Assembly: GCA_025360605.1 (NCBI GenBank)
Contig: JANYBV010000040.1
Location: 2,193 to 66,192 of the forward strand
Source: Alphaproteobacteria bacterium
Lineage (GTDB): Bacteria > Pseudomonadota > Alphaproteobacteria > Rickettsiales > SXRF01
Direction of reading: 5' to 3'
DNA length: 64,000 bases
Shown here: piece by piece, positions 21,541 to 31,840 of the stretch
How positions within the stretch are numbered: position 1 is the stretch's first letter
Layout: each line of letters opens with the position of its first letter
The notes under the pieces: model-generated
What the model was told of the DNA's origin: nothing
What the model saw: the letters and a program-made list of their open reading frames with translations, nothing else
Databases searched by the model: none
Program-made: the position numbers and the translations under genes

Positions 21541-22815
21541 ATGTCAAAACCGCTTTTTTCACTGGATTTAACGCATGCCCTCGAGGCCGTGGATACAAAA
21601 CGTTATGATCACTGGCTCGATACGATAGTAAAGGCGTTACCGCGTATTCAGGCGCAGCCGCAAAGGGAAGCCAAGCCTGTGCTTGAACTGCCCGCTAAAA
21701 ATGACGACCTGAAAGACATTGAAGCGATCGCCAGAGCAATCTCTGACCATTTCGGTACGTTGCTGGTGGTGGGCATGGGCGGTTCGTCACTGAGCGCGGA
21801 AACGCTGGCGTATATTCATAAGCCTTCACGCGTGAAACTGGAATTCCTCGATAATATCGACCCCAAAACGATGGAAACACTGACCAATGCGCTGGACTGG
21901 AAAAATACCGCCGTCCTTGTGATCAGCAAATCGGGTAATACCATTGAAACGCTGGCGCAGATGTCGGTGTTGCTGAGCAAGGCAAAAAAAGTACTCGGCA
22001 CGAATATCTCCAAGCATTTCTTTGTCATTACGATCACGAATGATAATCCGCTGCATGCGGTAGCCAAGGCACACCAGATGAAGGTGTTGGCACATGACCC
22101 TGATCTGGGCGGGCGCTTTTCGATTCTGTCGTCGGTGGGGCTGATTCCCGCCGCTGCCATCGGCATGGACATTCGTGCCCTGCGTGAAGGCGCAAGGAAG
22201 GTGCTTGCAGTTAATTTTGATGCAACCACAACAGGCTGTGCCGCACGTTCGGCAGCGTTACACCGGTCACTGATTGAAAAAAATATCCGCCTTAACGTCA
22301 TGATGCATTACTGTGACCGTCTGGCGGGTCTTGCCAACTGGTACCGCCAGTGCTGGGGTGAAAGTTTGGGTAAATGCGTGGAAGCCTCAACTCCTATCCG
22401 CAGCCGTGGCACCACCGACCAGCATAGCCAGTTGCAGCTCTATCTCGACGGGCCGAAGGACAAGCTGTTTACCCTGATGCTACTGGATTGTGCAGGGCAG
22501 GGCGAACCTATCGCGTTTGAAGGGGCTGATGACAAGCGCCTTGAATTCATGAAGGGCCGCACGCTGGGTGACCTGATGGTGGCTGAACAAAAAGGAACGC
22601 TGGCAACTATGGTAAAACGCGGTTGCCCGCTGCGCAGCTTCACGATGAACGAGCTGAACGAAGAAGTGCTTGGCGGACTGCTGATGCATTTCACACTGGA
22701 AACCATGTTCACGGCGGAATTGCTGGGGGTTAATGCCTTTGACCAGCCGGCGGTGGAAGAGAGTAAAGTCCTCGCACTTCAGTATCTCGCCGAACTCAAA
22801 TCCAACGCAGCCTAG
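21541..22815 (+). CDS. pgi: glucose-6-phosphate isomerase (short form)
   Basis: GMGGSSL and ISKSGNTIET motifs with SIS-domain architecture. ATG at 21541 lies 2 nt after the galE stop and is preferred over the longer ORF starting at 21490. Confidence 0.75.
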   Translation: MSKPLFSLDLTHALEAVDTKRYDHWLDTIVKALPRIQAQPQREAKPVLELPAKNDDLKDIEAIARAISDHFGTLLVVGMGGSSLSAETLAYIHKPSRVKLEFLDNIDPKTMETLTNALDWKNTAVLVISKSGNTIETLAQMSVLLSKAKKVLGTNISKHFFVITITNDNPLHAVAKAHQMKVLAHDPDLGGRFSILSSVGLIPAAAIGMDIRALREGARKVLAVNFDATTTGCAARSAALHRSLIEKNIRLNVMMHYCDRLAGLANWYRQCWGESLGKCVEASTPIRSRGTTDQHSQLQLYLDGPKDKLFTLMLLDCAGQGEPIAFEGADDKRLEFMKGRTLGDLMVAEQKGTLATMVKRGCPLRSFTMNELNEEVLGGLLMHFTLETMFTAELLGVNAFDQPAVEESKVLALQYLAELKSNAA

Positions 22816-23915
22816 ATTAACGGGTATTTTAAACAGATCCTCTTGCCGAGATAGCGGAAGGGGACTTCCAGAAACACATAGCTGATGGTGGCAACACCCA
22901 GCGTGACCATGATGAACATTGCTCCCAACATGGGTTTTTCCAGATGTTTGAAATAGGTTGAATAGGTAAAGATGTAGCCAATCGGCAAATGCAGCAGATA
23001 GACCGAATAGCTGATGCGTCCCAAAAAACGGAATTGCGGCAGCCCGAAAAACCATCCGATCAGACTTTTCCTATACAGGCTTATGATGATGATGGCCGGA
23101 AAAATAAAAAGCTGGAAGATATAATCATCAGAGATGATGGACGGATAATCATGAAATCTCAGTAAGATAACGGTGGTCGCTGCCAGCACTATTTCAAAGC
23201 AAAACAGGAAAACCCAAGGAATGACGGGCAGGCGGAGGTGGTTGCGGTAGATGAGCACCCCCAGAGAAAAACCGACAATGCCGCGCGCTATAGTTTCATT
23301 GAAAATAGGCGTATTGGCCATGGACAGATGGAGCGTGTGCGGTGAGAGGTTGATCAGGTATATGCTGCACACCGCAATGCTGGCCCAGAGCAGATAGCTT
23401 GGCACAATGCGGAATTGCCAGACGAGCGAGAAATAGAGCAGGTTGACAATCCACTCCACCGATACTGACCACGCAGGACCGTTCCAAGGTTCCACCATGC
23501 CTCCGATGTTACCGAGCATGGTGAGCTGTAAAAACAACCGCCAGATGAAATTGGGGCCCATACCAAAATCGACAGCATTGCCATAATGCAATGGCTTTAA
23601 CACATAGGCATTGACGGCAAGAAAACAGCCAATGCTGATAATATAAAGCGGATACAGACGCGCAATGCGCTTGATGCAGAAGTGATGGAAGCTGACGGTG
23701 CGAAGCGCGATAGCGCCTTCATACTGGCGGGAGATAATGAATCCGGAGAGAATAAAAAAGAAATCCACGCCCAGATAACCATAGCTTGCGAACTGGGTAG
23801 AAGAAAACATGCCATAAAAGTGGAACAGCACCACGAACATGGATACAACGCCGCGCCAGCCTTCGAGAGGGGCTAGATAGGTTTTGCTGGTGATGAGGTG
23901 ATTAGGTTCGGTCAC
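22812..23915 (-). CDS. acyltransferase-3 family membrane protein (ExoZ-like position next to galE/pgi)
   Basis: LEGWRGVVSMFVVLFHF and GVDFFFILSGFII motifs, polytopic. GTG start. Its stop overlaps the pgi stop (convergent genes). Confidence 0.75.
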   Translation of the reverse strand: MTEPNHLITSKTYLAPLEGWRGVVSMFVVLFHFYGMFSSTQFASYGYLGVDFFFILSGFIISRQYEGAIALRTVSFHHFCIKRIARLYPLYIISIGCFLAVNAYVLKPLHYGNAVDFGMGPNFIWRLFLQLTMLGNIGGMVEPWNGPAWSVSVEWIVNLLYFSLVWQFRIVPSYLLWASIAVCSIYLINLSPHTLHLSMANTPIFNETIARGIVGFSLGVLIYRNHLRLPVIPWVFLFCFEIVLAATTVILLRFHDYPSIISDDYIFQLFIFPAIIIISLYRKSLIGWFFGLPQFRFLGRISYSVYLLHLPIGYIFTYSTYFKHLEKPMLGAMFIMVTLGVATISYVFLEVPFRYLGKRICLKYPLI

Positions 23916-24145: not shown

Positions 24146-24718
24146 TCACTTCTTCGCGGGCAGGATGAGCAGGAAACCTGCATTCTCTTGACCGTGCAGG
24201 TACTCGCTGTTGGGCTTGTACTGCTCGCTCAGCTTGCCGACGATCTGAATCGGGTCTTCGTAGACCTTTTTCTTCGCGTCGTACCCGATGAAGATGACCT
24301 TGAGGTCCTTCTTGTTGCTGCCGAACCCCGAGCTTCCTTCCGGAGCGAGGATGAGGCTAGCTCCGTTGTAGGAACCGACGACCGCTGTGGAGCCGTCTGA
24401 GTTGAACGTCACGGCCCCGATCTTGACTTGCGTCTTGACGGGGCTGCCATCCTTGTTCGGGATGTTGAACGCGTCGAACCCGAGGTTGGGCTTGGGCAGG
24501 TCGATGACTTTCGTCATGGCGCTGCTGGCCACCTTGAGGTCCACGTCCATCATGAGCCCGTCGATCTTCTCGACGATGCCCTTGACCAACTCAGCCTTCT
24601 CCTTGACGGTCAACTTCTTCTCCGGCGGGGCCTTCTTGTCTTGGCCGCGGAGGGCGCTGCTGTTCGCGAGGAACAGCGCGAGCACCGCGAGGGTACTCAT
24701 CAACGAAAACGTACGCAT
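24146..24718 (-). CDS. secreted hypothetical protein, compositionally foreign
   Basis: 190 aa. Signal peptide MRTFSLMSTLAVLALFLANSSALRG. AGGAG 6 nt upstream of the ATG. Codons are almost all G/C-ending (AAG, GAG, GAC, ATC, TTC, CTC, GTC), unlike neighbouring genes. No family recognised. Confidence 0.7.
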   Translation of the reverse strand: MRTFSLMSTLAVLALFLANSSALRGQDKKAPPEKKLTVKEKAELVKGIVEKIDGLMMDVDLKVASSAMTKVIDLPKPNLGFDAFNIPNKDGSPVKTQVKIGAVTFNSDGSTAVVGSYNGASLILAPEGSSGFGSNKKDLKVIFIGYDAKKKVYEDPIQIVGKLSEQYKPNSEYLHGQENAGFLLILPAKK

Positions 24719-25297: not shown

Positions 25298-26563
25298 ATG
25301 GAATTTGCCCACGCAGTTTATAACATTATCGTTACGCTGATTGCCGTTTACACGGTCAGGCACTACGTGTTCACGCTCAACCGTCTGTACGGTGCGCAGC
25401 GCCATCCGTTTATCGACATCGATACGGCGAACTGGCCGACGGTGACGGTGCTTGTGGCCGCGCATAACGAAGAAGCGGTGATCATGAATTCGCTGGAAGC
25501 GCTGGTGAATGTGCATTACCCGCAAGAGCGCATCAAAATTGTTGTGGTGAATGACCGAAGCAAAGACAAAACCGGCGAGATCATTGAAGCCTACATGGCA
25601 AAATATCCCGGACGTATTTTCCATTTCGACCGCAAAGAGGGAAAACCAGGAAAAGCCGCCGCACTGAAGGATGCCACCGAAACTGTAACCAGCGATATCA
25701 TCGTGGTGTTCGATGCGGATTACATTCCGGGCCGCGGCTTGATTAAACAAATTGTATCGCCGTTCTTTGACCCCGAAACCGGACTTGTTATGGGGCGCGT
25801 GGTTCCTATCAACACCGGACATAATTTGCTCACGCGTTTGCTGGATATGGAACGTGCAGGCGGTTATCAGGTGGATCAGCAGGCACGCATGAATATGGGG
25901 CTTTTGCCGCAATATGGCGGCACAGTAGGTGGTGTTCGTATGGCGACCCTGCGTGACGTGGGTGGGTGGCATGATAATACGCTGGCGGAAGATACCGACC
26001 TGACGTACCGCGCGCTCTTGCGCGGCTGGAAAACGGTCTATCAGAACCGCTCTGAATGCTACGAGGAAGTGCCCGAAACATGGGCGGTGCGTATTCGCCA
26101 GATTATACGCTGGGCAAAGGGCCATAACCAGTCGCTGCGCCGTTATACGGGGGATGTGCTGAAAAACAGGAACCTGCGCTTCGCCGAGCGTCTGGACGCA
26201 CTATTACTGCTGGGTGTGTATGCCATGTCACCGGTTATCCTGATTGGCTGGGTGCTTGGGATTTACTTGTTCTATTGTGGAGAAATGCGCGTGTATGGTG
26301 GTTATTTGCCGCTGCTGGCACTAATCTCTTATTCGGCAGTCGGCAACACCGCCGCGTTTTTTGAAATTGCCGCTGCTGTATATCTTGATGGCGGGCGCAA
26401 ACGCCTGAGGCTGCTGCCGCTCAATTTCTTCAATTTTATGATCAGTACCATTTCCGTATCCCGCGGGATTATCACCTATGTTTTTGCTAAGCCGGAAGGA
26501 CGCGAAAAGTGGGAAAAGACGGAACGTTTCCGAACCCAAAACGCGGTTATTATGAGCCTATGA
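25298..26563 (+). CDS. processive family-2 glycosyltransferase (polysaccharide synthase; NodC/PgaC/YaiP-like)
   Basis: VAAHNEE, VVNDRSKDKT, FDADY (DxD), LAEDTDLTYR and RQIIRWAKG (QxxRW). One N-terminal and several C-terminal TM helices. Confidence 0.85.
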   Translation: MEFAHAVYNIIVTLIAVYTVRHYVFTLNRLYGAQRHPFIDIDTANWPTVTVLVAAHNEEAVIMNSLEALVNVHYPQERIKIVVVNDRSKDKTGEIIEAYMAKYPGRIFHFDRKEGKPGKAAALKDATETVTSDIIVVFDADYIPGRGLIKQIVSPFFDPETGLVMGRVVPINTGHNLLTRLLDMERAGGYQVDQQARMNMGLLPQYGGTVGGVRMATLRDVGGWHDNTLAEDTDLTYRALLRGWKTVYQNRSECYEEVPETWAVRIRQIIRWAKGHNQSLRRYTGDVLKNRNLRFAERLDALLLLGVYAMSPVILIGWVLGIYLFYCGEMRVYGGYLPLLALISYSAVGNTAAFFEIAAAVYLDGGRKRLRLLPLNFFNFMISTISVSRGIITYVFAKPEGREKWEKTERFRTQNAVIMSL

Positions 26564-27723
26564 TGAGCTGGCCCACCATATTGGTACTTGTGACCATCGG
26601 TTTGTTCATGTTGCCGCTGATACCAGCGATCATGGAACTGTACATGCCGACGGACATCACCCCGCTGAAAGTGGTGCAGGCCTATGACAATAATCCGATG
26701 CATTTTGCCAACGGTTTCAGGAATTATGTGCACAAGCAATTTGCTGTCACCAGCATCAGCGAATTACAGGAGCGCACGCTGGTTAAGGGACAACTGGAAG
26801 ATGGCACTAATTATCACATATTACAGGAATCCGACAATGGCAGTCCCGCTCAGGATATGGAAAAAGAACAGGTATTGATCTCGCACCATCCGATTATCCT
26901 GCCAGCGGATAAAGTGTACGAAGCTGAAATTTACTCCGCCAGCAATATCTCCACAGGAAAAAATTCCCGTTTCCGCGCGCTACTCTCCGACAATACGCTG
27001 ACGCTGAATGACGACTGCGTGGTGCTGCGCTGGGTTCACAGTGAAAACGATATGATGGTAGGGGAAAATTCGATTCTTTTGGGCAGGGCCACCTCAAACA
27101 ATACGATCACCCTTTCCAAGGGATGTTTTTTCGAGCGTTTAAACGCCAGAAAAATTATCACGGTGGAAGAGCTGCCATCTAAAACCATCGATACCTCCAT
27201 AGAACGGACATTTTTGGAAGCCTTAAAGGATGTCAAAATTCAGGCCGGAAGACGAAGCTTGCTGGAGGGTAACCTTGATTTCCCTGCTTACCATACGTTT
27301 GACGGCGATATTGTGGCGGGCACGACGGCTATTATTGGCGATTACGCTCACATTAAGGGCAGCGTAAAAAGTAACGCGATGAACGACATCACCTACTATC
27401 TGCAAAAGACAGGCGTTGTTCCCAATAAAGAAAAAAATATCGCCCGCTGCGAGCTGGGACATTATGTGAGGATCGATGGTTCACTGGTCAGCACGCACGA
27501 TCTGTATATCGGTGAAAATTGCTGGATTGGCGGACCTGTGATTGCAGAAAATCTGCTCGTTATCCGCAGCGGAACGGTGATTGGAACGCCTGAGCAGCCT
27601 TGCACTGTAACGGCGGCTAACATCATTATTGAAAGTGGTTGCGTAATTTACGGAACATTGTGGGCGGGTAAACAGGGGCAGGTGACCGGCCCGCAACATA
27701 ATGTGGAAGGGCTTGCCGCATGA
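26560..27723 (+). CDS. membrane-anchored protein with two bactofilin-like (polymer-forming cytoskeletal type) beta-helix modules
   Basis: ATGA overlap with the synthase gene. N-terminal TM segment (WPTILVLVTIGLFMLPLIPAIM). Two regions of short G/N-x-hydrophobic repeats, e.g. FDGDIVAGTTAIIGDYAHIKGSV... and LYIGENCWIGGPVIAENLLVIRSGTVIG... Confidence 0.6.
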   Translation: MMSWPTILVLVTIGLFMLPLIPAIMELYMPTDITPLKVVQAYDNNPMHFANGFRNYVHKQFAVTSISELQERTLVKGQLEDGTNYHILQESDNGSPAQDMEKEQVLISHHPIILPADKVYEAEIYSASNISTGKNSRFRALLSDNTLTLNDDCVVLRWVHSENDMMVGENSILLGRATSNNTITLSKGCFFERLNARKIITVEELPSKTIDTSIERTFLEALKDVKIQAGRRSLLEGNLDFPAYHTFDGDIVAGTTAIIGDYAHIKGSVKSNAMNDITYYLQKTGVVPNKEKNIARCELGHYVRIDGSLVSTHDLYIGENCWIGGPVIAENLLVIRSGTVIGTPEQPCTVTAANIIIESGCVIYGTLWAGKQGQVTGPQHNVEGLAA

Positions 27724-28775
27724 GGTTCATGTTCACATTATTGTCATTGATGGTGCTGCTATTGTTGGCGCAGGAGGCTATGGCTAAAAAAACGAAGCTT
27801 ATTGCCCCTAGTCCGATTGGCAAAGAACTTAAGCTCGATCCTATTTATCTGCGTCCGGACGGGGCAATTATGACGCTGACCAGCGGACAGCTGGTTGACC
27901 CCTATTTTCCGACCAAGGCGCTGCTGATTGCTCAGGACAGCGGTATGGATATTTCTAAAATTGCCGGCGACTGGATTAAGTGGATGCTGGCCCGCCAAGA
28001 CAGCAGCGGGTTATTTTTCCGTTATTGTTTTAAGGAGAATGATACAACGTATACGGCCTGTGCGGAAGCGGATGCGGACGATGCCATGCTGGCGATGTGG
28101 ATTGAACTGCTTTACCGTATGGCACCCAGAAAAGGGCTTCCTAAAGAATGGAAGGAAAGTGCTGACAAGGCCGAGTATCAGCTAAATTCAATTTATAACC
28201 CAAAAGCGACGGTGTTCTTTGTTTCCAAATCCATGCAGGCAGGCTTGCTCATGGATAATATCGAAATTTACTCTGCATTTAAACGTATTGAGCGTGACGC
28301 GGTGCGCTTGGGTGATGGGAAAAAAGCGGTTGAGTATCGTGGCAAAGCCGAGCAGCTGAAAATCGGCATTATAGGCAATTTCTGGGATGATAAAAACAAG
28401 CGTTTCATTGCCTCTACACAGGCTCGCACCGAGACCAAATTTTATCCCGATGTCGTTGACCAGCTGGTGCCGATGATGCACGGTTTTTCTGTTACTAAAA
28501 TTCCATCAGAAAACAGCTTTTATAAAAGCTGGATTAAACACCATAAAAATGAATGGTTCGCACTTTTGGGTAAGGATTATCCATGGGGCTTGTTGGCTGT
28601 GATGGCGGAAAAACGTGGTGACCACAATACGTCGGGTTGCTGGCTGAAGCTTTCTGCGCCATCAAGGCATTCCGCAATCTGGAATGTCATGGACGAAACT
28701 GCATTCCAGATTGTGGAATGGAAGCTCGGAAAGAAAAAGATTGATGATAAGCAGTGCGCAGGAGGTGCATTATGA
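27720..28775 (+). CDS. periplasmic protein of unknown family (possible alpha/alpha-toroid polysaccharide hydrolase/modifier)
   Basis: ATGA overlap with the upstream gene. Signal peptide MRFMFTLLSLMVLLLLAQEAMA. Helix-rich and W/Y-rich sequence. The function is inferred only from operon position. Confidence 0.55.
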   Translation: MRFMFTLLSLMVLLLLAQEAMAKKTKLIAPSPIGKELKLDPIYLRPDGAIMTLTSGQLVDPYFPTKALLIAQDSGMDISKIAGDWIKWMLARQDSSGLFFRYCFKENDTTYTACAEADADDAMLAMWIELLYRMAPRKGLPKEWKESADKAEYQLNSIYNPKATVFFVSKSMQAGLLMDNIEIYSAFKRIERDAVRLGDGKKAVEYRGKAEQLKIGIIGNFWDDKNKRFIASTQARTETKFYPDVVDQLVPMMHGFSVTKIPSENSFYKSWIKHHKNEWFALLGKDYPWGLLAVMAEKRGDHNTSGCWLKLSAPSRHSAIWNVMDETAFQIVEWKLGKKKIDDKQCAGGAL

Positions 28776-30022
28776 TTCATAAGCATGGTTCTACTATCTT
28801 GTTGTCCATGGGAACGCGGCCTGAAATCATCAAGATGGCGCCTGTGTATCTGGAATTGAAAAAACGTGGTGCCCAGCCGTTGTTATTGCACACGGGTCAG
28901 CATAGTGACATGGCGACGGCACTGTATAACCTGTTTGGCATGGTTCCTGATTACCATATCGACCTAAAGCGTGATTCTAAACCAGTGATCCTGAACGGGG
29001 AAGCCAAAGCCTCTGATCTGGCTGAACTCAGCAGCTCGTTGCTTCTGGAATGCTCTAAAATTCTGACTATGGCTGACCCTTCAATCGTGCTTGTCCATGG
29101 TGATACCAGCAGTGCGCTGATGATGACACTGGCAGCCTATTACCATAAATGCAAAATTGCCCATGTTGAGGCCGGATTACGTTCGTTTGACGAGCATAAC
29201 CCGTTTCCGGAAGAGAAGAACCGCGCGCTCATCGGTCAGATGGCGCACTGGCATTTTGCCCCGACCATCCGCGCCCGCAATAACCTGCGCAGCGAGGGAA
29301 TAGCCGATAATACCATTTTTGTAGTGGGTAACACCATTGTTCAGGCGGCTAAACTCGGCGCGGATTTGCTGGAAGCGCAGCGTAAAAAGAAAGACGACAG
29401 CGTTCCCGATCTGGTGGATAAGCTGAGTAAAAAAATGGAAGATATGCGGATGGTTCTTGTAACTAGTCACCGCCGCGAAAACCATCATGAGGGTTTGCGC
29501 TCGATTGCAAAATCGGTTCTGGAATTGCTCAAAACCCATAAAGATATGTTCGTTGTGTGGCCTATCCATCCGAATCCTAGTGTCATGAAAATTGTGCATG
29601 AAGAAGTAGGACATCTGGAAGGCGAGCTGGCGGAACGCCTGTTCCTCACCAAACCACTGAGCTATCCGGTGCTGTTATGGACCCTGAAACATTCATGGGT
29701 GGTGCTTACCGATTCCGGCGGGATTCAGGAAGAAGCGGTGTCGCTGAATACGCCTGTGCTTATCCTTCGCAAAACCACGGAACGCCCCGAGGTGATTGAG
29801 GTTGGGGCAGGGGCGCTTGTGGGAACCAATAGCGAGCGCATTTTGTCAACGGTTGCCCAGCTGACGAATAATCCTGATCAATATGAAGCAATGAGGAATG
29901 TCACCAATCCGTTTGGCGATACGCGCGTGGCCAATACGATCTGTAATATTTTGTTGGGCAAAGAAACCATCCGCCAACAACCTAAAAATCCTCCGTTTTT
30001 ACAAGAGTCGTCGCATGTCTAG
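28772..30022 (+). CDS. wecB: UDP-N-acetylglucosamine 2-epimerase (non-hydrolysing)
   Basis: GGAGG RBS and an ATGA overlap with the upstream gene. Motifs ILLSMGTRPEIIKMAPV, HVEAGLRSFD..PFPEEKNR and TDSGGIQEE. Confidence 0.85.
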   Translation: MIHKHGSTILLSMGTRPEIIKMAPVYLELKKRGAQPLLLHTGQHSDMATALYNLFGMVPDYHIDLKRDSKPVILNGEAKASDLAELSSSLLLECSKILTMADPSIVLVHGDTSSALMMTLAAYYHKCKIAHVEAGLRSFDEHNPFPEEKNRALIGQMAHWHFAPTIRARNNLRSEGIADNTIFVVGNTIVQAAKLGADLLEAQRKKKDDSVPDLVDKLSKKMEDMRMVLVTSHRRENHHEGLRSIAKSVLELLKTHKDMFVVWPIHPNPSVMKIVHEEVGHLEGELAERLFLTKPLSYPVLLWTLKHSWVVLTDSGGIQEEAVSLNTPVLILRKTTERPEVIEVGAGALVGTNSERILSTVAQLTNNPDQYEAMRNVTNPFGDTRVANTICNILLGKETIRQQPKNPPFLQESSHV

Positions 30023-31025
30023 AATTTTCTGTTCCACCATTTTAGCCTTATACTTCACCTCGGGGGTATGCCTCGCCGACACTACGCCTGCATCTGACGT
30101 ATCGGAAGCGCAGATTTTTGCGATCAATGATCCTGCCATCACTATGCCTACGGATACCACGCCTGCATGGTTGAATAAAATGGCATCTCCGCCGGTATTT
30201 TTGCGTAAAAACGAAGCGCAGAACCCGAACGATAAACCGCCAGAAGATCAAAACGCCCAGTCCGCCAATGCGGCTGTCAGCACGCCGGCTACGGACAGCG
30301 AATATATTCCACCGCTCATTCCCAACTATATTGAGGCGGGTTTCAATTATTACAATGTGACGCATAATTACGGCAACAGCTTCGGCCAGTTCGTTAATGC
30401 CCAGTACCAGACGGACCCATGGAACCGCTGGAGCGCAGGATTACAACATGCACAGGCATTTCATGACCAGGGTGAAGCCGCTTCTCTTGCTAATAACCAC
30501 ACCTTCAACGAAGATTGGTATAGTGACGTCGGCGTAAGTGTTGGCAGTCCTGCTTCATTCCTTACCCGTTATCGCGGGGATGCGTCGCTGAGCCGCCGCT
30601 GGCTTGAGAACCGCAATTTTATCACCTCGCTCGGGTTCACTTATGACAAGGCCAATAAAACCTACAGCGACCGTACGATTCATCTGAATTTTGCCTATTA
30701 TTTCCTGTCGCCATGGGTGATTCAGACTGGATTTAACCTCAACGACAGCACACCAGGGAATGTGATTGCACCGTCCGCATTCATTGCGCTGACGTATGGC
30801 TATCAGGGCAAGTACTTCCTGACTGCACGTTATGGTTTTGCACATGAAGCGTACCAGCTGCTTAATTCAGGCAACATCCAGAATTCATTCACCAGCCACA
30901 CAATGGGTGCAAATTGGCGGCAATGGCTTGGATCCGATTGGGGATTCAATCTCGGCACCGAATTTTATATCAATCCCTACTATACGCGCACCGGTGGGAT
31001 TGTTAGCGTTTTCAAGGAATTTTAA
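30015..31025 (+). CDS. outer-membrane beta-barrel protein (YaiO-like by recollection)
   Basis: Signal peptide MSRIFCSTILALYFTSGVCLA. Alternating beta-strand pattern (AGFNYYNVTHNYGNSFG...). C-terminus ...GGIVSVFKEF ends in Phe. 8-nt overlap with wecB. Confidence 0.6.
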   Translation: MSRIFCSTILALYFTSGVCLADTTPASDVSEAQIFAINDPAITMPTDTTPAWLNKMASPPVFLRKNEAQNPNDKPPEDQNAQSANAAVSTPATDSEYIPPLIPNYIEAGFNYYNVTHNYGNSFGQFVNAQYQTDPWNRWSAGLQHAQAFHDQGEAASLANNHTFNEDWYSDVGVSVGSPASFLTRYRGDASLSRRWLENRNFITSLGFTYDKANKTYSDRTIHLNFAYYFLSPWVIQTGFNLNDSTPGNVIAPSAFIALTYGYQGKYFLTARYGFAHEAYQLLNSGNIQNSFTSHTMGANWRQWLGSDWGFNLGTEFYINPYYTRTGGIVSVFKEF

Positions 31026-31027
31026 GA

Positions 31028-31840
31028 ATGAAATCGTCTGAACTGCTCAAACAACTACGGTTTATCCGCTACCACAACTCTCAGGGGCGCGTGATCCCGA
31101 TTCACCACGCGTTTAAAACCATTGAGCTGAACAGTTTTTCACGTACCAGTGCGATTATTTTACCTGTTTTATTCCTGTCTGTATTCTGGCTGATGCTGCC
31201 TGAAATTTTAGATTTCTGGGCGGGGGTGATGAATTTCTGGATGCAACGCATCTATCAGGCAGTCGTGAATTACGAGCAGGTGAGTATTCTCGGACAAAAT
31301 GTATATGTACCCTATCCAATGCTTGAAGCCGAAATGCCTAGTAAAAGACTGGTTTTACTTAATCTGATTATTTGCTTTGTGGTGTTTGCGTTGAGCCTGT
31401 TGTTGCCGAAGAAATGGATTCCGCTGACGTATTTAATGCGTACATTGCTGTTGATTCAGGGATCAGCTTCTGTGAATCGCTTACTTTCTCCTGATTTTTT
31501 TCCGTACACGATGAAGATTTACATGCTGGATTCGCTGACCTTATGTGTCTACATGCTCATGGTGTTGCCGTTGTTGCTTGGGCTTGTGTATTACATCTTT
31601 GACTTTCCGGTGTGGCGAAAGTGCCTGCTGACTATTCTCATGCTGGTATATTATCTGTTGTTCATCCCGTGCCAGTACACGTTGCATGCCTATCTGATCC
31701 ATGAATATTCCATGATTATGCTGCCTGTTTTATACATATTCTTCGGGGTGCTGCTGGATGTACTTACATTTGTCAGTATTTACTCGTTTGGTATGAGCTG
31801 GCGCAGTCGCCGCAATGCGCTGAGAGGTCGTGGGGCATAA
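31028..31840 (+). CDS. polytopic inner-membrane protein, unknown family
   Basis: 270 aa and about 6-7 hydrophobic helices. Starts 2 nt after the barrel gene stop. Last gene of the operon. Confidence 0.6.
   Translation: MKSSELLKQLRFIRYHNSQGRVIPIHHAFKTIELNSFSRTSAIILPVLFLSVFWLMLPEILDFWAGVMNFWMQRIYQAVVNYEQVSILGQNVYVPYPMLEAEMPSKRLVLLNLIICFVVFALSLLLPKKWIPLTYLMRTLLLIQGSASVNRLLSPDFFPYTMKIYMLDSLTLCVYMLMVLPLLLGLVYYIFDFPVWRKCLLTILMLVYYLLFIPCQYTLHAYLIHEYSMIMLPVLYIFFGVLLDVLTFVSIYSFGMSWRSRRNALRGRGA

Follow-up and report, generated by a model that had tools for sequence, protein, structure and literature searches.

Synthase-dependent exopolysaccharide systems, such as those for cellulose, alginate, Pel, poly-N-acetylglucosamine (PNAG) and the Nfr glycan, are central to biofilms and to phage adsorption, and each of them has a different inner-membrane activating partner. 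BcsA, Alg44, PelD and PgaCD are gated by cyclic di-GMP (c-di-GMP); in the PNAG system, PgaD is required both for the activity of the synthase and for binding of this messenger, whereas NodC and the hyaluronan synthases require no messenger. NfrB of E. coli is also c-di-GMP-gated, and the Nfr system has been proposed to make a WecB-dependent N-acetylmannosamine (ManNAc) glycan by means of a family 2 glycosyltransferase (GT2) synthase (PMC8669472). Here we describe a locus of the synthase-dependent type in a stretch of 64,000 nucleotides of the alphaproteobacterial contig JANYBV010000040.1, referred to below as the window. The gene directly behind its synthase gene, an open reading frame (ORF) at 26560-27723 on the forward strand, encodes a membrane-anchored protein of 387 amino acids with two tandem predicted bactofilin-fold beta-helices, for which we use the name BacL. 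We propose that BacL is probably a dedicated, obligate, cytoplasm-facing inner-membrane subunit of an uncharacterised exopolysaccharide machine; in the same joint reading, and with the same degree of confidence, the other parts of the machine are the GT2 synthase, a WecB epimerase, a YaiO-family barrel and a polytopic protein, p270, while a secreted protein is optional.

The BacL gene is the second of six closely packed genes on the same strand, which encode the GT2 synthase, BacL, a 351-residue protein, WecB, the YaiO-family barrel and p270, and whose layout is that of a synthase-dependent exopolysaccharide system. A sequence-only reading of the window had noted that the ORF starts inside the stop codon of the synthase, and it does: the GT2 ORF (25298-26563) ends in a TGA at 26561-26563, which together with the ATG at 26560 forms the overlap ATGA at 26560-26563. 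The position beside a processive GT2, pointed out in the same reading, proved to be invariant. An orthologous GT2 gene lies immediately upstream of BacL in 21 of 21 contexts (the window, L001, L003, L006-L009, L042, L043, L045-L054 and the contexts of P0030 and P0041), mostly with a 4-nucleotide overlap or a gap of a few base pairs. Of 201 genomes sampled from the order, the same 8, from 5 families, carry both BacL (at E<=1e-10) and the orthologous GT2 (at E<=1e-60), and the other 193 carry neither. Translational coupling of the BacL gene to the GT2 gene and its strict co-inheritance with it are thus strongly supported at the sequence level. The synthase is by far the more conserved of the two: in contexts that have a full-length match, its identities are 52-84% and those of BacL 23-57%. 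No GT2-BacL fusion was found among the 150 best representatives.

We take BacL to be a real gene because its relatives form 59 clusters at 90% identity and 852 at 50% identity. The latter number, obtained at E<=1e-30, is a lower bound, the family comprising at least 852 clusters (1369 at E<=1e-10); nearly all are 350-390 residues long and align end to end. The family is large in metagenomes, and the module is patchy and rare among sampled genomes, being present in 1 of 401 from the class and 6 of 401 from the phylum. The source names are those of metagenome-assembled genomes (MAGs) of Alphaproteobacteria, 'Rickettsiales' and Proteobacteria and of one Terriglobales MAG, and the contexts span further classes of the phylum; this taxonomic breadth is drawn from few source names and from the genome samples of order, class and phylum. 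Where the flanks are long enough, most contexts also include WecB, the YaiO barrel and p270. The secreted 351-residue protein is optional, as it is missing between BacL and WecB in L043, L045, L046 and L051.

Several variants of the module and of the protein were seen. In L047, a distant relative, curli-type csgF and csgG lie directly upstream of the GT2-BacL module (L047:4978-6747). The BacL homologue of L053 (G910:C10:155965-156513) has an in-frame TGA and matches in its C-terminal half only, and it is possibly a pseudogene in an otherwise intact module. Long family members are explained by a fusion of BacL to p270, by a triple-helix form, by disordered tails or by a transposase artefact. 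The triple-helix form is that of the P0195 cluster (531 residues, 17 members, one of them on 117 contigs), in which there are three beta-helix blocks, the helix having been duplicated again.

The topology of BacL can be read from its only hydrophobic segment, residues 7-25, which has a mean Kyte-Doolittle hydropathy of 2.61 and belongs to the single N-terminal transmembrane helix that had been recognised from the sequence (about residues 5-26, positions 26572-26637), with its conserved motif LPLxPAxxE. In 46 of 49 family members, the stretch before this helix consists of 0-6 residues and is devoid of lysine and arginine, the remaining three being start calls extended too far, while the 20 residues after it contain a mean of 2.1 lysines and arginines (for example ELRRKSD). 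There is also a natural fusion, P0179, a metagenomic protein of 692 residues with 2 cluster members on several contigs of up to 23 kb, in which a BacL homologue (residues 8-366) is joined to a p270-like polytopic domain (417-688). The junction precedes a stretch rich in lysine and arginine, with no transmembrane helix in between, and the N-terminus of p270 in the window is likewise rich in these residues. Because of the charge bias around the helix and of this fusion, an N-out/C-in orientation is strongly supported by the sequences; both beta-helices would then be cytoplasmic and lie next to the synthase's catalytic domain. As a Rosetta-stone link, P0179 further suggests that BacL and p270 act in one complex.

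The structure and topology predictions and the bactofilin profile search that the sequence-only reading had proposed all bore on its main claim, that BacL carries two blocks of bactofilin-type beta-helix repeats. In an AlphaFold2 model of the full-length protein, built on an alignment of 49 sequences (mean predicted local distance difference test, pLDDT, 87.6; predicted template-modelling score, pTM, 0.81), an N-terminal helix is followed by three short helices and by two blocks of mainly beta structure (residues 105-204 and 232-376), whose strands repeat at intervals of 17-19 residues. A beta-helix is therefore predicted, and there are two blocks, although both of the peptides that had been quoted for them lie in the C-terminal one (residues 247-269 and 315-365). 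The juxtamembrane region (residues 30-100, positions 26647-26859) comprises the three short helices and a hairpin, with D32, L36, F49, A50 and F53 conserved. Block 1 occupies positions 26872-27171 and block 2 positions 27253-27687. Within block 2 there is an insertion of 25 residues (273-297, positions 27376-27450) that is partly helical, with a short helix predicted at about residues 277-284, and of low confidence in the model (pLDDT 47-62); it is confined to the closer relatives, an alphaproteobacterial MAG group.

The bactofilin-type assignment was borne out directly for block 2, and for block 1 only by way of the internal duplication. PF04519, the bactofilin family, is the only Pfam match of BacL (E 9.4e-5, residues 304-368 only), and its 23.0 bits lie under the gathering score of 27.9. 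The match is split and below threshold because the 25-residue insertion sits inside a rung of block 2; members that lack the insertion cover profile positions 3-96 of 98. PF04519 is matched at E<=0.01 by all 49 aligned family members, and the cut-off is passed by 4 of 10 members scanned singly (28.8-30.8 bits) and also by two longer relatives (29.9 and 30.2 bits). When the blocks were compared by hhalign, the alignment of block 1 with block 2 had a probability of 97.3% and an E-value of 2.3e-11 over 99 columns. Against the canonical bactofilins of related genomes, block 2 gave a moderate alignment (75.7%, 36 columns) and block 1 a negative result (4.5%). Because block 1 aligns with block 2 even though it lacks a direct bactofilin profile match, the two blocks are, as judged from these alignments, the products of an internal duplication of a bactofilin-type helix whose N-terminal copy has diverged.

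The fold of block 2 was further assessed with a separate AlphaFold2 model of residues 222-387, made from 11 locus-derived sequences (pLDDT 85.2, pTM 0.80). Its best superposition in the PDB by Foldseek is on the Thermus bactofilin 6ria_1, with a target-normalised template-modelling score (TM-score) of 0.69 and a root-mean-square deviation (rmsd) of 4.3 Å; BacA of C. crescentus (2n3d) follows with a TM-score of 0.45. Judged by the score against 6ria, the modelled block is a right-handed triangular beta-helix of about six windings. Its rungs terminate in the single glycines G249, G267, G307, G325, G342 and G365, as in bactofilins. On the strength of the TM-scores and the Pfam profile, we assign the modelled block 2 to the bactofilins, as a divergent domain, rather than to the left-handed beta-helix (LbH) enzymes.

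Conservation, counted in 200 family members, is highest at a small set of residues. P22, E26 and D32, in the transmembrane helix and at its cytoplasmic end, are each conserved in 99%. Block 1 holds R139 (95%), R157 (99%), W158 (99.5%), H160 (97%), R176 (99.5%) and R193 (97%), and block 2 holds K270 (100%), P326 (97%) and E330 (95%; the last two in a GPVIAE motif) in addition to its corner glycines. The four arginines of block 1 each start a consecutive rung, at spacings of 18, 19 and 17 residues, so that by sequence register and predicted strands they should stack as a ladder on one edge of the first helix, near W158 and H160. That lysine almost never takes their place points to contact with a particular partner surface or anionic ligand rather than to non-specific attachment to membranes or to a filament whose role is structural only. 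The most conserved residues of BacL are thus of a charged or aromatic surface type and are not the hydrophobic end rungs by which canonical bactofilins polymerise, so that BacL would be at least as much a docking or ligand-binding subunit as a filament.

A possible mode of action for such a subunit can be outlined. The motif of the transmembrane helix and juxtamembrane region (P19, P22, E26, D32) would pack on the helices of the synthase and of p270, and the rigid double beta-helix would sit below the membrane next to the catalytic domain. The basic and aromatic stripe of helix 1 (R139, R157, W158, H160, R176, R193) may then bind either the synthase or an anionic effector, for which a nucleotide second messenger, a uridine diphosphate (UDP) sugar or lipid head groups are candidates. 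BacL would stabilise or activate polymerisation, in the slot that is held elsewhere by PgaD or by a PilZ or MshEN domain. End-to-end self-association of the beta-helices, clustering synthases, would be possible, but this model does not require it.

Several points weigh against this proposal. All Foldseek E-values exceed 0.1 and are non-significant, as is common for beta-helices, so that the fold call stands on the TM-scores and the Pfam profile; the full-length BacL model gave no usable match in the PDB by Foldseek (best E 0.14, TM-score <=0.21). Profile searches against PDB sequences gave weak matches to LbH and ice-binding proteins (E>=2e-4) and none to a bactofilin, and for this reason the handedness of the helix is left undecided by sequence alone. 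The clustering of the conserved residues in a single patch is deduced from register and predicted strands, and the ladder arginines could be structural, engaged in salt bridges, instead of binding a ligand. Beyond fold, topology and linkage, namely for interaction, ligand and phenotype, we infer the role of BacL.

A bolder interpretation, which we offer tentatively and regard as doubtful, is that BacL represents a new functional class of the bactofilin fold, an integral glycan synthase subunit. Its ladder helix would be a receptor of a type not known before, with a nucleotide second messenger or some other anionic effector as its ligand, or its helix ends would polymerise and array the synthases, or both. 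The two halves of this interpretation can also be considered as explanations in their own right.

The first of these, which the sequence-only reading had put forward and which seems to us somewhat less probable again, holds that BacL is a scaffold: below the membrane, its bactofilin-fold helices would join by their ends into polymers, clustering or positioning the synthases, for example at a pole, or aligning the sites of glycan extrusion. Deng et al. (2019, as cited in PMC8892547) are said to have shown that canonical bactofilins polymerise via the ends of this same beta-helix, and the fold of BacL and its relationship to PF04519 would fit such a scaffold, as would the disordered C-terminal tails rich in proline and alanine of P0094, P0107 and P0146 and the third block of P0195. 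However, block 1 no longer matches bactofilin profiles, the strongest conservation falls on charged surface-type residues, and both blocks of the AlphaFold2 model finish in unusually long strands (190-201, 348-358 and 362-376) that may cap the ends. Cytoskeletal roles can, moreover, be left to other proteins of the cell. The source genome (G000) retains two canonical bactofilins elsewhere, at C25:44258-44545 and C28:26810-27097, with PF04519 scores of 81 and 75 bits, and most genomes of the same family also encode such proteins; BacL therefore adds to the bactofilin cytoskeleton and does not replace it. What speaks specifically for a filament is the predicted fold.

The second, which we consider distinctly unlikely, is that c-di-GMP, or a nucleotide akin to it, is the ligand of the arginine ladder and the neighbouring tryptophan and histidine of helix 1 and that its binding activates the synthase, so that BacL would replace receptors of the PilZ, MshEN or PgaD type. 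None of the six operon proteins has a Pfam or NCBIfam match to PilZ, MshEN, the GGDEF I-site or GIL, which leaves room for a receptor of another kind, and the four stacked, non-substitutable arginines with W158 and H160 would suit an anionic ligand. All of BcsA, Alg44, PelD, PgaCD and NfrB are gated by c-di-GMP, and the carrier genomes of the module encode 4-9 GGDEF proteins each. These are common proteins, though, and hence non-specific evidence; BacL has no known c-di-GMP motif, and the NodC and hyaluronan synthases show that messenger control is dispensable. BacL may accordingly be a second-messenger receptor, but nothing specific speaks for it.

It is very improbable that BacL is a hexapeptide acyltransferase of the LbH type that modifies a sugar or the polymer. 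What speaks for such an enzyme is that BacL weakly resembles serine acetyltransferase, LacA and WcaF (E 0.003-0.25), together with family-level matches weaker than that to PF04519, namely to LbH_EIF2B in 30 of 49 members, to Hexapep in 5 of 49 (one over its cut-off) and to Ice_binding. The LbH matches of BacL itself are nevertheless far under their cut-offs (17.4 bits against 326 for WcaF), it has no Hexapep match in Pfam at E<=0.01, and the block 2 model superposes on the hexapeptide acyltransferases PglD, LpxD and GlmU with TM-scores of at most 0.2 and rmsd values of 11-14 Å, compared with a score of 0.69 for the bactofilin. The single-glycine rung ends are bactofilin-like, a transmembrane anchor and a tandem duplicated helix are foreign to LbH enzymes, and an Acyl_transf_3 gene already adjoins the operon. 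The identification as a left-handed acetyltransferase, the alternative against which the sequence-only reading had set its own, is thereby effectively excluded. Least credible of all, and likewise effectively excluded, is a periplasmic location, in which the beta-helix, like AlgG or a lyase, would bind, guide or modify the emerging glycan chain, since, although polysaccharide-active proteins are often beta-helices and the basic stripe could hold an acidic glycan, a positive N-terminal region is found in 0 of 46 correctly started sequences with the lysines and arginines coming after the transmembrane helix, the fusion leads into the cytoplasmic, lysine- and arginine-rich N-terminus of p270 with no transmembrane helix between, six cysteines (counted in the translation) apparently occupy core positions, and the helix is of the small triangular bactofilin type rather than the pectate-lyase type.

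Our preferred reading, in which BacL is a synthase subunit, draws also on the neighbouring genes. The product of the GT2 gene (25298-26563, forward strand) has 421 residues and bears the motifs of a processive membrane synthase (D, D, D, Q(R/Q)xRW type), in the form FDADY, AEDTD and RQIIRW. It matches Glyco_tranf_2_3 (1.1e-31) and Glyco_trans_2_3 (7.8e-22) in Pfam; its best NCBIfam match is PgaC_IcaA (6.7e-38), under the cut-off of that model, and its nearest solved structure is BcsA (E 1.8e-18). One N-terminal and about three C-terminal transmembrane helices can be discerned by eye, a hydropathy threshold scan having flagged residues 302-320 only. In the P0041 context (JGI 3300042731), the GT2 upstream of BacL has 762 residues, about 340 more than usual; no Pfam family is recorded for the extension, which might be a fused regulatory domain.

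The remaining genes of the operon follow on the forward strand. The 351-residue protein (27720-28775), which has a hydrophobic N-terminus, is predicted to be secreted by a signal peptide and is possibly a glycoside hydrolase (a weak MGH1-like_GH match of 17.8 bits). The next gene (28772-30022) encodes a WecB-type non-hydrolysing UDP-N-acetylglucosamine 2-epimerase, with 381 bits for TIGR00236 against a cut-off of 210 and a Pfam Epimerase_2 match of 5.9e-95; it is presumably the source of UDP-ManNAc. Because a WecB paralogue belongs to the module, the polymer probably contains ManNAc. The YaiO-family outer-membrane beta-barrel with its signal peptide (30015-31025; 131.7 bits for TIGR04390, whose cut-off is 32, and Pfam YaiO 8.2e-20) is likely to be the export porin, and p270 (31028-31840), a polytopic inner-membrane protein of 270 residues with 5-6 transmembrane helices by hydropathy, is probably another component of the complex in the inner membrane. 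In L050 (1481-3091), a p270-like domain and a YaiO-like barrel share one frame of 536 residues, a topologically odd arrangement that may be due to read-through or to an assembly artefact.

Just upstream of the operon and on the opposite strand lies a gene for an Acyl_transf_3 membrane acyltransferase (22812-23915; Pfam 1.9e-21). Such a gene is also found near the module in L001, L006, L007, L008 and the P0030 context, and its product is a candidate O-acetylase of the polymer. Between this gene and the operon, a secreted orphan of 190 residues is encoded on the reverse strand (24146-24718). Three of its paralogues, with 29-30% identity, occupy the same position in the relative L001/L005 (L001:2212-6054).

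The sequence-only reading knew of no such role in synthase-dependent exopolysaccharide systems, and our search of the literature yielded no account of a glycan synthase with a bactofilin-type partner, of a YaiO/WecB/GT2 module or of YaiO as an exopolysaccharide porin. Automated annotations already name some members of the family 'CcmA (bactofilin family)' or 'polymer-forming cytoskeletal protein'. What would be new is a type of inner-membrane subunit for synthase-dependent exopolysaccharide systems and, equally, an architectural branch of the bactofilins. A family of at least 852 clusters would employ a partner built on a cytoskeletal fold. If BacL activates or organises the synthase, this would be a new regulatory principle in glycan secretion and would extend the roles of bactofilins past those of scaffolds for cell shape and polarity; if the receptor or array interpretation is true, it would be the first direct mechanical link of a bacterial cytoskeletal fold to exopolysaccharide secretion. 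The arginine ladder offers a directly testable site, and since two carriers in the phylum sample, G837 and G858, are complete single-contig genomes, a culturable host may exist.

Among the known systems, BcsA-BcsB resembles the locus in that no homologue with a solved structure is nearer to the GT2 than BcsA and that a synthase is combined with a partner that has a single transmembrane helix. However, BcsB lies in the periplasm, anchored at its C-terminus, and a PilZ domain is fused to BcsA, whereas BacL would be cytoplasmic and has a different fold. The E. coli Nfr system (NfrB, a GT2-MshEN protein, with NfrA and YbcH), whose product is the glycan receptor of phage N4, is alike in being synthase-dependent and in needing UDP-ManNAc from WecB (PMC8669472). 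In NfrB, a c-di-GMP domain of the MshEN type is built into the C-terminal part of the synthase itself, while here a short GT2 of 421 residues is accompanied by a separate bactofilin-fold protein and wecB is part of the operon.

Of all known families, the PgaC-PgaD pair and the canonical bactofilins come nearest. PgaC-PgaD and IcaA-IcaD resemble the pair in gene order and disposition: PgaC_IcaA is the nearest NCBIfam model to the GT2, the partner gene lies directly behind the synthase gene, and most of the partner, which is anchored in the membrane, lies on the cytoplasmic side. This likeness is one of position and function and an analogy only, as BacL has no Pfam or NCBIfam match to PgaD or IcaD, and PgaD, with two transmembrane helices in about 137 residues, is unrelated to it in sequence and fold. 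The BacL module also differs from the PNAG system in its supply of ManNAc by WecB and in having a YaiO-family porin instead of PgaA.

The canonical bactofilins (PF04519/COG1664; BacA, 2n3d; TtBac, 6ria) share with block 2 a right-handed triangular beta-helix of about 18 residues per turn with glycines at its corners. They are proteins of 130-280 residues that contain a single beta-helix and are targeted to the membrane by a short amphipathic peptide, and those of the genome's relatives score 70-82 bits. The single-helix core with short disordered tails and the peripheral membrane binding by an N-terminal peptide that define them are not found in BacL. In contrast, BacL scores 23 bits and has a true transmembrane helix, a juxtamembrane helical region of about 70 residues, two helices in place of one, an arginine ladder on the diverged helix and a genetic tie to a GT2 synthase.

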